Source: an uncultured Acidobacteriota bacterium (GTDB lineage Bacteria; Acidobacteriota; UBA6911). Taken from it: a stretch of DNA of 64,000 nucleotides. The stretch covers positions 96,001-160,000 of the forward strand of contig CAWHCF010000022.1 in assembly GCA_963827655.1 (NCBI GenBank). Direction: 5' to 3'. Of the stretch, positions 27,482-31,755 are shown in pieces; within the stretch, counting starts at the first letter, position 1, and each line of letters begins with the position of its first letter. The notes beneath the pieces are model-generated. The model saw nothing but the letters and a program-made list of their open reading frames with translations, was not told the origin of the DNA and did not search any database. A program made the position numbers and the translations under genes.

Positions 27482-28216
27482 CTATCCTCTGCCCAGATAA
27501 GCCTGCTGAACCGGCAGGACGATGGCTTCAAGCATGTTGATGTGGGGCGGGAGAACCGCCATGAGTACGGCTACCTGCGCGAGCTCGTCCGGCTCCATCA
27601 TCGGTTCTCGATCCTCCGGCCGGCTTCCAAGAGCGCGCCATTCATTGACCACGTTTCCGGGGTGAAGACAACTGGCGATGATGCCATGCTCCCGTCCCTC
27701 CAGCGCCGTCACCTGGGTGAGTCCCCACAATCCGTGCTTGGTTGCCGCATAGGCCGCGGCGCGAGGCCGCACGCGCTGCGCGGAAATACTTGCGATATTG
27801 ATGATGCGGCCGCCGCCCTGCTTCTTCATGATCCGGAAGGCCGCGCGAGAGCAGAGGAAGGGACCGCGCAGGTTTACCGCCACGACTCGGTCCCATTTTT
27901 CCGCGCTGAGTTCGTCGATCGGTCCGCCGTCAAACGCGCCCGCGTTGTTTACCAGCACATCCAGACGGCCAAAGCGTTCCATGGTCTGCTCAAACAGCCT
28001 CTCGACCTGCGCCTCATCCGAAACATCACTCGGGAATCCGGCCGCCGCGGGAGAACCCAAGTTGCCGACCTGCCGAACGGTTTGCTCCAATCGGACAGGA
28101 TCGCGCGCTGCCAGCGCCAGGCTCGCCCCTTCACTCGCGAAAGCGCGCGCGATCGCCGCCCCGATGCCTCGATTTCCGCCTGTGATCAATGCCGTCTTCC
28201 CATCGAGTTTGCCCAA
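27482..28216 (-). CDS. Short-chain dehydrogenase/reductase
   Basis: TGGNRGIG, DVLVNNAG, YAATKHG. Start placed at TTG 28216 behind GGAGG. Confidence 0.92.
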   Translation of the reverse strand: MGKLDGKTALITGGNRGIGAAIARAFASEGASLALAARDPVRLEQTVRQVGNLGSPAAAGFPSDVSDEAQVERLFEQTMERFGRLDVLVNNAGAFDGGPIDELSAEKWDRVVAVNLRGPFLCSRAAFRIMKKQGGGRIINIASISAQRVRPRAAAYAATKHGLWGLTQVTALEGREHGIIASCLHPGNVVNEWRALGSRPEDREPMMEPDELAQVAVLMAVLPPHINMLEAIVLPVQQAYLGRG

Positions 28217-28390
28217 AGTAGTCCTCCCCGGTGTACTTTCTTGTTTTTTCGGGTCTTCGAGTCTTAGTGGTTGGTTTTGTTCTGCCGCACTAACCACGAA
28301 GGCACGAACGACCGAACGAAGGCACGTAAGGCGTTTCACCAGCGCCTAGAAACGACATTTTAACGGGACGGCTGCTCGCAAAATGTTTTC

Positions 28391-28450
28391 AAAAAAAATT
28401 TTTCTAAAAAATCGTTGACAACATTTTTGAGCTCTGGCAAAGTGACGCCC
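28391..28450 (+). promoter_or_regulatory. Strong sigma70-type promoter (UP element, perfect -35, extended -10)
   Basis: AAAAAAAATTTTTCTAAAAAATC, TTGACA (28415-20), 17-bp spacer, TGgCAAAGT (28435-43), GC-rich discriminator GACGCCC. Confidence 0.7.
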
Positions 28451-28683
28451 GGTCGTTGCAGTTTGCGTGACCTTGAACACCGGTAGATGATCGACGGATG
28501 GGCTTAACAGGTTTGTTCGTCGGGCTAGGAAGCCGGAGCCAGTTGGCGGAAACCAATTCCCAACTGGTGTCGTCGAGAGAGAGACTTGACGACTGGTAGC
28601 GCCTTCCGGCTGACGTTCGATCCCGGGCAACGGGAGAGAACATTCCAAAAGGATCGGGTCAAGGGAACGGAGCCGCAACGGCC
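28451..28683 (+). ncRNA. Candidate ~233-nt structured non-coding RNA of unknown family
   Basis: 5' GGTCGTTGC pairs with 3' GCAACGGCC; long closing stem plus five further helices with many G-U pairs; begins 8 nt after a -10 box; followed by ATTTTATTTT. Confidence 0.72.
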
Positions 28684-28827
28684 ATTTTATTTTGTCCCGC
28701 TGACCGAAACAATCCACCGCCAAGACTCGAAGTCGCCGAGAACCCATAGGACCACCAAGATCTATTTGGGTCTCGTTTCTACGGGTGCTAGAATCATGGC
28801 GTCTACATCATTTTCACGGAGGCCCGG

Positions 28828-29193
28828 ATGAAAAAGGTGATGGTCTATTCAGTCGTACTGGCATGCACTCTGGCCGCTTCGATCGCGCTGGGCGCCAACG
28901 GCAATATCGATAAACGCGAGTATGTCTGCATGATGCAGGACATGGTTTTGACCAAGCCGGGAATTGCCATTGAGTACGAGGGAAAAACCTACTACGGCTG
29001 CTGCGACATGTGTAAAGACAAGATCAAGAACCAGCCGCAGAAATACACGCGAGCTACCGACGCTGTATCCGGCAAGCAGGTCGACAAAGCCACCGCGTTC
29101 ATCTATGGGCTCGACGGGGACGCCTACTACTTCACCTCCGAGGCAAACCGAAAAGCCTTCGCCGAAAATCCGCAGAAGTTTCTCAAGAAGTAA
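28828..29193 (+). CDS. Exported YHS/TRASH-domain protein
   Basis: Signal peptide, VCMM, YEGKTYYGCCDMCK, DAVSGK.VDK, YYFTSEAN...F; own extended -10 TGCTAGAAT at 28786-28794. Confidence 0.85.
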   Translation: MKKVMVYSVVLACTLAASIALGANGNIDKREYVCMMQDMVLTKPGIAIEYEGKTYYGCCDMCKDKIKNQPQKYTRATDAVSGKQVDKATAFIYGLDGDAYYFTSEANRKAFAENPQKFLKK

Positions 29194-29295
29194 GCTGAAT
29201 AACACTAGATGGCATTTCCCATCTTTTCTTTGGCTTCGGGTCTTCGCCTTTTCTGGCTCAGCCATAGACGCGGATCGAGGACCTGAACGCGAACC

Positions 29296-31755
29296 ATGTC
29301 CGCTTTTGCGCGCCTCTACGAAAAACTCATTCTCCGGCACCCGCTTCTCGTCGTCCTTGCCTTTGGCGCCGGGCTGATCTTCTTCGGCTACAACCTCAAG
29401 AATTTCCGCATGGACGCGTCGAGTGACTCACTGATCCTCGAAAACGACGCCGATCTGAAATATTACGAAGCGACCCGGGAAATCTTCGGCTCCGACGACT
29501 ACATTGTCCTCGCAGTCACGCTTCGCGAGCATCTGCTTTCCGACAACGTGCTTCGCACTCTGGAAAGCCTTTCTCGGGAGCTGGAACGGGTCTCGAATAT
29601 CGAATCGGTCAACAGCGTTCTCACCGTCCCGCTCTTCCATAGCCCGAAGGTTTCACTCTATGAAATGGGGACTCAGCACAAGACCTTGCTGATGGAGGGG
29701 TGCGACCGCCAGCTGGCCTACCAGGAGCTCACCACGAGTCCTCTGTGGCGCAATAACCTTATTTCCGAGGATGGCAAGACCACAGCCATTGTTCTCACCT
29801 TCAAGCCCAATGCGGAGTTCAACGCGCTCCGAGACGAACGTTACCGTCTCCGCCGCCAGCAGGCTTCGGGAAGTTTGACGGCCGATGAAGAAAGGCGGAT
29901 GAGAACGGTCAACCGGGCCTACAACGAAAAGCATGCCGAACTCTCGGCGCAACGGCGCGCCGATGTGCGGGAAATCAGGACGATCCTGGCCAAGTACCGC
30001 GGGCAAGCCTACGACTTTGTCGAGTCCGGCCTGCCGATGATCATCGCCGACATGGTCAGCTACATCGAACGAGACATCATTGTTTTCGGGATTGCGGTCC
30101 TGGCATTTCTCACTGCGGTTCTGGGCATCCTCTTTCGACAGGTCAAATGGATCCTGCTTCCGATCGTAACCTGCTTGATCTCCGCCATCTTCACGATGGG
30201 TTATCTGGGGTTGACCGGCTGGGAAACGACGGTGGTCTCCGCCAATTTTTCTTCGATGCTGCTCATCGTGGGGATGCAGAACGCCATCTACCTGATCGTG
30301 CGCTTCAGGGAGATTCATGCGCGCTTTCCCGAGCGCGACAAGAAGGACATCCTGTTTCAGACCGTGCGGGAAATCAGCGTTCCGTGCTTTTATGCTACCG
30401 CGACCGCCGTGGCAGGTTTTGCGACCCTCATCATCAGCGGCATCCGGCCCGTCATCGATTTCGGTCTCCTTATGGCGGCAGGTCTCTCGCTCGCCTATGT
30501 CGTGAACTTTACCTTCTTTCCGGCTGCGCTCCTCCTCTTCCCCAAGGGACCGCCACCTCCAAAGCATCTCGCTACGCTGGAGAAATCACCGGTCGCATTT
30601 CTGGCGGCATTCAGCCGCCGGCACCAAATCCCGATCGCAATGGCAAGCCTCGGGCTTCTCGGCGTATCAATCGCAGGTATGACGAAGCTTCAGGTGGAAA
30701 ACCGCTTCATTGATTATTTCCGGAAAAGCACGCCCATTTCCCGTGGCTTGAGCGTGATTGATGAACGCCTCGGGGGCACGACATCGCTGGAGATCGTCCT
30801 CGACGGCAAGAAGAAGGATTACTGGCTGGAGCCGCAGAATCTGGAGATCCTGCGCAAAATCCACAAACACACCGAGCAGCTGCCGAACGTCGGCAAGGTA
30901 TCGTCACTCGACACGCTGATCGAGATTCTGACCAAAGTCAACGACGGCGTTCCGCCCAACAAGTTCATCCTCAATCTGGCGCGCGCGACCCTCGCGCCCA
31001 GGATGCAGCAGGCCTATCTTCTCCCCTATGTGACCAGCGACTTTTCGCAAGCGCGCATCTTCATCCGGATTCGCGAGTCGAGCCCCACGCTGAGCCGTGA
31101 TGCCATGCTGGGAGACCTCGCAAATTTTCTGAGGAAGGAAACCAGGTTTACCGAGGATGAGGCCCGGGTCACCGGGCTCTTTGTCTTATACAACAACTTG
31201 CTGAACAGTCTTTTCGACTCGCAGATAAAGACGCTGGGCGTGGTCTTCGTGGTGATTTACTTGATGCTGGTTGCGCTCTTCCGCTCTTTTTATCTCTCCT
31301 TTATTTCGATGTTACCGACAACCCTTCCGATCCTGATTATCCTGGGAACCATGGGGGCGCTTCATATCTCGCTCGATATGATGACGATCATGATCGCTTC
31401 CGTGACCATGGGAATCGCCGTCGACAACATGATCCAATACACATTCCGTCACCGGGATGAGTTCCGTCTTCATGGAGATTACACCGTCGCCACGGACAGG
31501 ACGCACAACAGTATCGGCCGGGCGATTCTCTATTCCAATCTCACCATCATCGCCGGGTTCAGCATCCTGGCGTTATCGAATTTCATCCCGACCATCTACT
31601 TTGGAATCTTTACCAGCCTGGCCATGAGCGCCGGGTTGCTGGGTTCCCTCACTCTCCTTCCGATGTTGCTGAGTCTGCTCAAACCGTATCGACGCCGCGT
31701 CGTCGACCCACTCGCAGAGGCTGATCGTCAATCGTCAACCGCCAATCGCCAATAG
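29296..31755 (+). CDS. MMPL/RND-family transporter
   Basis: Duplicated 1+5 TM architecture, FGSDD, TAVAGFATL...IRPVIDFG, GIAVDN.IQ, IAGFSILALSNFIPTIYFG. Confidence 0.9.
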   Translation: MSAFARLYEKLILRHPLLVVLAFGAGLIFFGYNLKNFRMDASSDSLILENDADLKYYEATREIFGSDDYIVLAVTLREHLLSDNVLRTLESLSRELERVSNIESVNSVLTVPLFHSPKVSLYEMGTQHKTLLMEGCDRQLAYQELTTSPLWRNNLISEDGKTTAIVLTFKPNAEFNALRDERYRLRRQQASGSLTADEERRMRTVNRAYNEKHAELSAQRRADVREIRTILAKYRGQAYDFVESGLPMIIADMVSYIERDIIVFGIAVLAFLTAVLGILFRQVKWILLPIVTCLISAIFTMGYLGLTGWETTVVSANFSSMLLIVGMQNAIYLIVRFREIHARFPERDKKDILFQTVREISVPCFYATATAVAGFATLIISGIRPVIDFGLLMAAGLSLAYVVNFTFFPAALLLFPKGPPPPKHLATLEKSPVAFLAAFSRRHQIPIAMASLGLLGVSIAGMTKLQVENRFIDYFRKSTPISRGLSVIDERLGGTTSLEIVLDGKKKDYWLEPQNLEILRKIHKHTEQLPNVGKVSSLDTLIEILTKVNDGVPPNKFILNLARATLAPRMQQAYLLPYVTSDFSQARIFIRIRESSPTLSRDAMLGDLANFLRKETRFTEDEARVTGLFVLYNNLLNSLFDSQIKTLGVVFVVIYLMLVALFRSFYLSFISMLPTTLPILIILGTMGALHISLDMMTIMIASVTMGIAVDNMIQYTFRHRDEFRLHGDYTVATDRTHNSIGRAILYSNLTIIAGFSILALSNFIPTIYFGIFTSLAMSAGLLGSLTLLPMLLSLLKPYRRRVVDPLAEADRQSSTANRQ

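Follow-up and report, generated by a model that had tools for sequence, protein, structure and literature searches.

A stretch of 64,000 nucleotides (nt) from an uncultured Acidobacteriota bacterium (assembly GCA_963827655.1, contig CAWHCF010000022.1, positions 96,001 to 160,000), called the window below and numbered from its first letter, carries on its plus strand a real, independently delimited gene for a structured non-coding RNA of a new family, which is restricted to one family of uncultured Terriglobia. The gene is located at 28451-28693, with about 234 nt up to the end of the closing helix P1 and 243 nt when the following U-tract is included, and it sits in a 488-nt intergenic stretch, flanked on one side by a divergent gene for a short-chain dehydrogenase (minus strand, 27482-28339) and on the other by a gene for a YHS-domain protein (28828-29193). 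Its fold, its promoter and its 3' end are conserved among homologues, and soil metatranscriptomes contain the RNA at levels well beyond those of the flanking sequence.

The plus-strand fold of 28451-28693 has an energy of -115 kcal/mol, compared to -80.3 ± 4.7 kcal/mol for shuffled sequences (z = -7.40), and none of 200 shuffles folded as well, while the fold of the minus strand was weaker (-86.3 kcal/mol, z = -4.13). A highly structured RNA had been described at this place in the original prediction, made from the letters of the window, and every helix listed there was found both in the sequence and in the minimum-free-energy fold; the description was confirmed by the z-score, the homologues and the covariation among them, which lie far beyond chance.

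Comparison by BLAST with 60 relatives gave full-length matches of 70-79% identity in 15 of the 36 other genomes of the same family and in none of the 24 genomes of other families. Most of these matches started at 28450/28451 and ended at 28688-28700 (often at 28693), i.e., at the limits of the predicted RNA, and the shorter blocks (query start at 23 or 31-32, end at 193 or 232) became full-length matches with a covariance model, R1, with 243 positions and 72 pairs, in which the window copy scores 261 bits. The window genome (8.18 Mb, 53 contigs) carries a single copy: a search of it with R1 for further copies returned only the known one, and an additional hit of 14.8 bits (E = 0.46) was treated as noise. 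When the copies were aligned together with 120-nt flanks, similarity was confined to the RNA, its promoter and, in many copies, two upstream motifs, and it ended at the U-tract.

Covariation supported the fold on the plus strand in two alignments, A1 with 27 full-length copies and A3 with 75 metagenome copies. RNAalifold assigned 72 pairs to A1, 30 of them with compensatory changes. In our own count, which took the RNAalifold structure and two test helices (78 tested pairs in the 27 copies), 95.4% of the cells were paired and 32 of the 78 pairs had changed on both sides; shuffled controls gave 17.4 ± 2.2 such pairs, with none of 500 reaching 32, and no more than 11 were counted when the 3' partners were slid by 1-3 columns. 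The values for A3 were 95.7% paired cells and 36 of 72 pairs changed on both sides, against 22.7 ± 2.1, in a set that leans towards the structure since its members were picked by a pattern fixing part of helices P2a and P2b and were aligned to the model. Mutual information, calculated over 83 distinct sequences, placed model pairs at all of the top 8 column pairs and at 20 of the top 45; the same scan yielded no new long-range helix, only a tentative mini-hairpin and one-pair extensions of P4a and P5.

The RNA folds into a closing helix of 12-13 base pairs (bp) around a multi-branched core made up of P2a, P2b, the inner junction of P3, P4a and P4b, and P5. In P1, which closes the whole molecule, the strand 28451-28463 pairs with 28671-28683, directly followed by the U-tract, as found from both fold and covariation; 97.8% of the cells of its 12 pairs are paired, and four pairs show compensatory change. 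P2a is built from CCUUGAACACCGGU (28471-28484), with two bulged A residues, and its partner AUCGGGUCAAGG (28653-28664), paired in the covariation count. This helix of 12 pairs (99.1% paired) is nearly invariant in sequence, six pairs being without variation in the 27 copies. The hairpin P2b (28491-28523, 15 pairs) ends in the small apical loop UUAAC; seven of its pairs are invariant, including four G-U pairs that are present in 27 of 27 copies and are never replaced by G-C or A-U. It is followed by a junction strand at 28524-28530 with the conserved CUAGGA; the window reads GGCUAGG there, the last A of the motif being already paired in P3, at its beginning. Across the 27 copies, the C, A, G and G of the motif vary little or not at all.

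The inner junction is enclosed by P3, formed by 28531-28536 and 28606-28611 according to the covariation count (six pairs, 98.8% paired, four with compensatory change). Inside it stand the hairpins P4a (28538-28568; 28538-28546 with 28560-28568), with eight pairs, five of them with compensatory change, and P4b (28569-28593; 28569-28577 with 28585-28593), with a purine-rich loop of 7 nt and nine pairs, eight of which show compensatory change in A1 and all nine in the metagenome set. The loop of P4a is variable, measuring 7, 8, 11, 13, 15, 16, 17 or 20 nt among the copies. The junction strand 28594-28605, UGGUAGCGCCUU, keeps a conserved GG..GC..C in the alignment and may, tentatively, form a mini-hairpin of 3 bp; its first and second-to-last columns covary (UU 27, GC 27, GU 15, CU 6 and AU 6 are the five commonest combinations among the 83 distinct sequences). 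P5 (28616-28640; eight pairs, 99.5% paired, three with compensatory change) contains an invariant CCCGGGCAACGGG core, and after it a possible mini-hairpin at 28645-28652, whose usual sequence is CCGAAAGG and which reads CCAAAAGG in the window, has two pairs with 87% of the cells paired. A pseudoknot between a loop ACCA and a downstream UGGU, proposed earlier, did not hold, as only 64.8% of its cells are paired and the loop is swapped for a short one in five of the 27 copies.

The RNA is non-coding, because the limits of open reading frames on either strand differ from copy to copy and the loops differ in length by amounts not divisible by three. A minus-strand frame of 133 amino acids at 28346-28747, spanning the RNA and its promoter, was considered and looks spurious, neither its limits nor its frame being conserved among the homologues; this frame might be annotated by gene callers.

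The promoter of the family is of the sigma-70 type, with a -35 element TTGACR, a spacer of 17 bp, an often extended -10 element and an A/T-rich upstream tract. In the window, it consists of an A/T-rich tract resembling an UP element (28381-28413), the -35 hexamer TTGACA (28415-28420) and, after 17 nt, the extended -10 TGgCAAAGT (28435-28443), from whose end 7 nt lead to G28451, the predicted +1. The promoter anticipated for this RNA is thus present in the window and conserved among its relatives: among 80 copies, TTGACN stands at the same place in 74, the -10 hexamer at the 17-nt spacer has A at position 2 and T at position 6 in 62, the TG of the extended -10 occurs in 34, and the distance from the end of the -10 hexamer to the first conserved base is 7 nt in 62, while the 22 nt 5' of the -35 hexamer have a mean A+T content of 76% compared to 51% further upstream. 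The GC-rich discriminator, which had been offered as a sign of a stable-RNA promoter, is a feature of the window copy only and is A/T-rich in the other copies. Note that a simple promoter scanner with a stricter -10 rule called no site at the RNA promoter, so the promoter claim rests on conservation across the copies.

At the 3' end, the expected terminal helix followed by a U-tract is present and conserved, and the blocks of homology stop at the U-tract, which in the window is AUUUUAUUUU at 28684-28693; at least 7 T within the last 12 nt were found in 71 of 75 full-length copies. P1 and the adjoining U-tract would together form an intrinsic terminator that ends transcription. As for the downstream gene, its product is indeed a YHS-domain protein, and the separate extended -10 once assigned to it (TGcTAGAAT, 28786-28794) is only plausible; the corresponding candidate promoter at 28766-28794 reads TTGGGT, 17 nt, and TAGAAT preceded by TG.

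Evidence for expression came from four metatranscriptome runs of four studies (X1, X2, X5 and X13), whose assembled contigs were aligned to 28300-28900, some of them, with 90-95% identity, deriving from relatives. The summed contig depth over about 28461-28697 was about 2,700 in X1, 9,000 in X2, 980,000 in X5 and 840 in X13. At the same time, the flanks, which serve as a silent internal control, had a depth of 0 at 28300-28446 and of 0-5 at 28699-28900, with only 2-5 over the YHS region. The abundant stand-alone transcript of the original prediction therefore has its counterpart in four metatranscriptomes that cover the RNA only, and at very high depth. Fifteen RNA runs from eight studies contain 25-34% of the sampled words of 28300-28900, a stretch of which the RNA makes up 40%. 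Besides the four runs above, which alone are counted as evidence, sixteen contain part of this stretch (11 of them recorded as RNA), and a further RNA run, X21, which was listed for belonging to the same study as another run, contains almost none of its words. In X5, adapter-like sequence, presumably of an Illumina adapter, abuts 28461 on the 5' side (five contigs) and 28684 on the 3' side (three contigs), and the latter junction suggests that the 3' end may lie at the base of P1. The RNA was assigned to the plus strand because of its promoter and terminator, its many G-U pairs and the fold energies.

The comparison with known RNAs was negative throughout. With the 4227 models of Rfam 15, the window gave no hit at the gathering score, and at E values up to 10 nothing fell on the RNA, the only hits being chance ones in the A/T-rich promoter; 13 homologous loci likewise gave nothing on the RNA. 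ARAGORN reported no transfer RNA (tRNA) or transfer-messenger RNA (tmRNA) gene in 27500-29500, and no tRNA-like module was found. The window genome has its own canonical 6S RNA (84.7 bits) on another contig and its own small signal recognition particle (SRP) RNA elsewhere (69.8 bits). Together, these results exclude the known families named in the original prediction, which had seen no tRNA, tmRNA, RNase P, SRP or common riboswitch signature. The case of a divergent 6S RNA, which would have removed the novelty, was covered by the Rfam check, and the 6S model gave no match on the RNA. Word searches of the literature, made by terms rather than by sequence and in texts without supplementary files, returned no description of the RNA, and in a 2026 preprint the one passage reached by term look-up deals with Acido-Lenti-1 and contains nothing on the RNA. 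The Acido-Lenti-1 model itself gave a sub-threshold hit (32.2 bits against a gathering score of 37, E = 0.0011) on the minus strand of locus L048 (497-544), outside the RNA and about 1 kb from a divergent copy in a genome of genus g2.

The RNA is thus a new class outside Rfam, in the sense that every test of membership in a known family that gave a verdict was negative, and "new" applies here to the class of RNA and not to its mechanism. The proposal of a possibly new class of stand-alone RNA is supported by the Rfam and ARAGORN results, the separate 6S and SRP RNAs, the covariation, and the promoter and terminator. The gene also has the general features of an independent bacterial small RNA (sRNA) gene, namely, a conserved promoter and terminator-like end, lack of coding capacity and, at the level of contigs, discrete cover in RNA samples.

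Several known RNAs resemble it in part. 6S RNA (RF00013) is likewise abundant, stable, trans-acting and about 200 nt long, its ends are paired in a closing stem, and it binds protein, as proposed here for the new RNA; however, the latter has no match to RF00013, forms a multi-way junction with three branch points rather than a rod with a central bubble, exists in multiple copies and is confined to one family. RsmY/RsmZ and CsrB/CsrC share with it the stand-alone nature, the abundance, the sibling copies, the terminator ends and some conserved unpaired GGA motifs, and the GacA/UvrY box may have a counterpart in an 18-bp palindrome of the 6-N6-6 type located far upstream of, and almost only at, these RNA genes. 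Unlike in those systems, there is a large multi-way junction instead of a string of small hairpins. Inspection of the alignment and the structure placed the conserved GGA motifs, of which there are only three or four, in junction or internal-loop strands, and no apical loop shows a conserved AGGA that is unpaired; the RNA matched those systems neither in sequence nor by model, and the palindrome differs in sequence from the GacA box. The raiA, OLE, ROOL and GOLLD RNAs, which are represented in Rfam, were also found by comparative genomics, have intricate folds with strong covariation, are often abundant and had no known biochemical function when found. The RNA described here matches none of their models, is smaller than OLE, ROOL and GOLLD, shows no phage association, belongs to another phylum, has a much narrower range and, unlike these orphan RNAs, has a clear promoter, an operator-like element and its own terminator. 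Bacterial Y RNAs (YrlA, Yrn1), which are bound by Ro60/Rsr, also have their 5' and 3' ends in a long stem closing a multi-branched body and are abundant, non-coding and sometimes present in several copies, but the new RNA has neither their tRNA-like module (ARAGORN) nor an Rfam match, and Ro60/TROVE is encoded in only two of the 19 RNA-bearing genomes.

Within the Terriglobia family in question, 19 of 51 genomes carry the RNA according to R1; a second model, R2, derived from the three divergent copies found in genus g2, singled out the same 19. All nine genomes of genus g9 and both of g10 carry it, while in g2, the largest genus, only three of 30 genomes do, with divergent and shorter copies (197-219 nt, 59-70 bits). 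Outside the family, R1 found no copy in 86 genomes of the class or in a sample of 149 genomes of the phylum. A pattern scan of species-representative genomes returned 25 stretches, all titled as metagenome-assembled genomes of uncultured Acidobacteriota, Acidobacteria or Terriglobia; the same pattern occurred in 75 metagenome contigs and had no match in viral contigs, and blastn against phage and plasmid records gave no match. The number of full-length copies per genome varies from one to three. In the genome G017, a single full-length copy is accompanied by two that are truncated on the 3' side and lie about 4.9 kb apart on contig C116 (L013 1502-1683; L023/L054 1501-1730). Both truncated copies have retained the palindrome, the promoter and the RNA up to about nt 182; beyond that point the sequence has diverged entirely and there is no U-tract. 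Their R1 scores are 159 and 144 bits, where full copies reach about 235-274 bits, and they could represent pseudogenes or else a chimeric form whose 3' portion is another one. A MacB/FtsX permease gene follows one of them.

The palindrome GTTTCC-N6-GGAAAC is present in 51 of the 83 copies for which 200 nt or more of upstream sequence were available, starting at -133 to -136 in 41 of them, at -146 to -148 in nine and at -141 in one. A second motif, ATMTCYTGTG, occurs in 40 of the 83 copies, at -70 to -72 (36 copies) or at -83 (four copies), and 31 copies, including the one in the window, have neither. In five genomes, the exact palindrome was found seven times, five times upstream of the RNA and twice in apparent coding sequence, and no R1 match above 11 bits lies near the latter two; for the second motif, nine of 12 occurrences are upstream of RNA copies. 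Such constant distances, and the near-restriction to the RNA genes, suggest a regulator dedicated to this RNA. The palindrome was also considered as the marker of a wider regulon, and none emerged, since the only two sites away from the RNA are those in apparent coding sequence. In a few copies (L006, L027 and L030, at about -85 to -60), ATMTCCTGTG is duplicated in tandem with a period of ~12 bp, shifting the palindrome from -134 to -147, and in three copies the upstream motif reads TGTGGATAA, which resembles the DnaA-box consensus.

The genes around the RNA vary. By our own calls of open reading frames, no neighbour family occurs in more than eight loci among ~93 distinct copies, the neighbours including PrmA, YacP/NYN, MMPL, GFO/IDH/MocA, prolyl-tRNA synthetase (ProRS), M28 peptidase and others. 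Since the neighbouring genes differ, the RNA probably acts in trans. In the first of three settings (12 loci, all without the palindrome), a divergent prmA (eight loci) is combined with a downstream yacP/NYN (nine loci) or a convergent M28 peptidase gene; here, the RNAs start with AGCCGCUG in nine of the 12 loci, and this prmA-yacP lineage is syntenic in many genomes. In seven of nine type-A loci yacP/NYN follows the RNA after 11-190 nt, and in the other two after 667 and 2150 nt. In the second setting (six loci, the palindrome in one), a same-strand MMPL transporter gene lies 57-603 nt downstream of the RNA, as in the window, with the YHS gene between, and in five others. Examples of this arrangement are found at window 28828-31755, L061 1558-3996 and L128 2236-4740, with a secreted YHS protein encoded between the two in the window and in L147; their recurrence may reflect the shared ancestry of one RNA lineage rather than a functional link. 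The remaining loci are variable, with GFO/IDH/MocA, ProRS, MacB/FtsX, a response-regulator-GAF-SpoIIE phosphatase or a Na/sulfate symporter, and mostly have the palindrome. A tRNA gene lies ~0.3-1.4 kb from the RNA in four of 13 loci (L011 2855-2928, L012 10-83, L005 732-805 and L025 1130-1203), a proximity that could be fortuitous or could reflect some loose grouping of genes for stable RNAs.

The reading that we tentatively prefer, at a confidence somewhat below even, is that of a trans-acting RNA that binds protein through its invariant helices and, in most paralogues, is the output of a dedicated transcription factor. The suggestion of protein binding comes from the contrast between P2a and P2b, with six of 12 and seven of 15 pairs invariant, and P4b, with eight of nine pairs changing. 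The RNA would serve in trans as a protein scaffold or decoy, with the invariant P2a, P2b and P5 as the recognition surface for the protein, and with the freely covarying P1, P3, P4a and P4b only holding the shape. The level of the RNA would be set by a dedicated factor that recognises two sites, GTTTCC-N6-GGAAAC some 125 bp before the start and the second motif at about -71. The RNA would then be the output of a signalling pathway, in an arrangement comparable to the GacA box and RsmY/Z although not part of that system. The window copy, having neither upstream motif, would be expressed from a bare strong promoter.

A number of observations weigh against this proposal. The invariance of the helices could equally come from tertiary contacts, alternative pairing, a ligand or a catalytic core. 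The transcription factor is hypothetical, and the palindrome could have another role; a Pfam scan of 32 neighbouring proteins found no transcription factor, the nearest candidate being the response-regulator-GAF-SpoIIE phosphatase, which has no DNA-binding domain and stands beside a few related copies. No partner protein emerged, and of the candidates CsrA and Ro60 were checked by presence and absence. CsrA (PF02599) is encoded in 33 of the 51 family genomes, with 16 among the 19 RNA bearers and 17 among the 32 others, and was not found in the window genome, G000 (90% complete), or in G025 (100% complete, with two RNA copies), and Ro60/TROVE (PF05731) is encoded in three of the 51, the two RNA-bearing genomes mentioned above among them, and not in the window genome, so neither fits as an obligate partner. 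The patchy presence of the RNA in its family (19 of 51 genomes, and three of 30 in g2) means that its function is dispensable. Finally, the metatranscriptome contigs show neither the strand nor the exact ends of the RNA, contig depth reflects expression only poorly, and the RNA runs had no DNA run beside them for comparison.

Among the other explanations, it appears unlikely that the RNA is self-sufficient, i.e., a ribozyme or a ligand-binding or self-assembling RNA whose conserved core is an active site or tertiary scaffold. The conserved multi-way junction core with freely covarying peripheral helices, the very high abundance, the lack of an emerging partner protein and the GAAA-type mini-hairpin, which could dock on a receptor, are all in keeping with such an RNA; however, conservation lies largely within the helices P2a, P2b and P5 and not in the junction strands, mutual information shows no pseudoknot or long-range tertiary pair, and no loop is long or self-complementary enough for kissing contacts, as judged from the alignment. 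It seems rather improbable, too, that the RNA is a base-pairing sRNA that would contact mRNAs by an unpaired stretch or by the invariant P2b strand, perhaps with Hfq on its 3' U-tail. Its own promoter and U-rich 3' end, the siblings preceded by an operator of their own, which many sRNA families also show, and the invariance of P2b without covariation, which could mean a second pairing partner, would suit this explanation, but 243 nt with 72 conserved pairs are far more structure than seed-type sRNAs need, the unpaired junction strand 28594-28605 varies among the copies, and the adapter-like sequence at 28684 in one run hints at a trimmed U-tail.

We see little reason to expect an RNA that sequesters CsrA/RsmA in the manner of CsrB or RsmY/Z and is controlled by a response regulator bound to the palindrome, even though there are conserved unpaired GGA stretches (CUAGGA, AGAGGAU and CAAGGAAACGGA), several paralogues and a 6-N6-6 palindrome, almost exclusive to the promoters of the RNA, that resembles the GacA box. 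The higher share of CsrA among RNA-bearing genomes also points this way, but the contrast of 16/19 with 17/32 is weak, the genomes being kin; besides, CsrA is common in RNA-less genomes and was not found in the two RNA-bearing genomes named above, there are only three or four candidate sites, all outside hairpin loops, and a sponge does not need so elaborate a conserved fold. A cis-acting leader or riboswitch, in which P1 and the U-tract would be a conditional terminator for the YHS and MMPL genes, is very unlikely as well. The closure of P1 beside the U-tract has the geometry of an off-switch, a same-strand MMPL gene follows in six loci and yacP/NYN in the type-A loci, but most copies have unrelated or convergent downstream genes with no constant functional class, the depth past the U-tract is 0-5 compared to 10^2-10^6 on the RNA, the YHS gene has a plausible promoter of its own, and no riboswitch family is matched. 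The chance that this is not a cellular RNA gene at all but a coding region, represented by the minus-strand frame 28346-28747, or a part of a phage, plasmid or transposon is close to negligible. A frame of 133 amino acids does exist, and the minus-strand frame is open across much of the RNA in many copies, but the limits of the open frames vary, the loop insertions and deletions are not multiples of three, and the compensatory changes would be left unexplained. The multiple copies and patchy distribution would suit a mobile element; against it stand the absence of blastn matches in phage and plasmid records, the 0 viral contigs, the prmA-yacP synteny and the lack of terminal repeats in the flank alignment.

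Acidobacteriota are among the dominant bacteria of soil, and, to our knowledge, almost nothing is known of RNA-based regulation in them; we know of no Csr/Rsm-type RNA for organisms of this Terriglobia family. The class of ~240 nt reported here becomes available for structural and biochemical study, its size being suitable for probing and possibly for cryo-electron microscopy, and it gives access to a regulatory circuit of bacteria that have so far not been grown. For metatranscriptomics there is a practical gain, as reads of the RNA in soil libraries depleted of ribosomal RNA can now be assigned by the covariance model, and the apparent levels of the RNA are very high in soil and rhizosphere metatranscriptomes from several studies. 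As a broader and more doubtful idea, the RNA may be the effector of a lineage-specific signalling system, in which a dedicated regulator at the palindrome would switch on sibling RNAs that capture or scaffold a protein and thereby reset the physiology of the cell. If this is true, the RNA would match 6S RNA or Csr/Rsm in rank as a global regulator while having no relation to them, and few non-ribosomal transcripts would be more abundant in some libraries of soil RNA.

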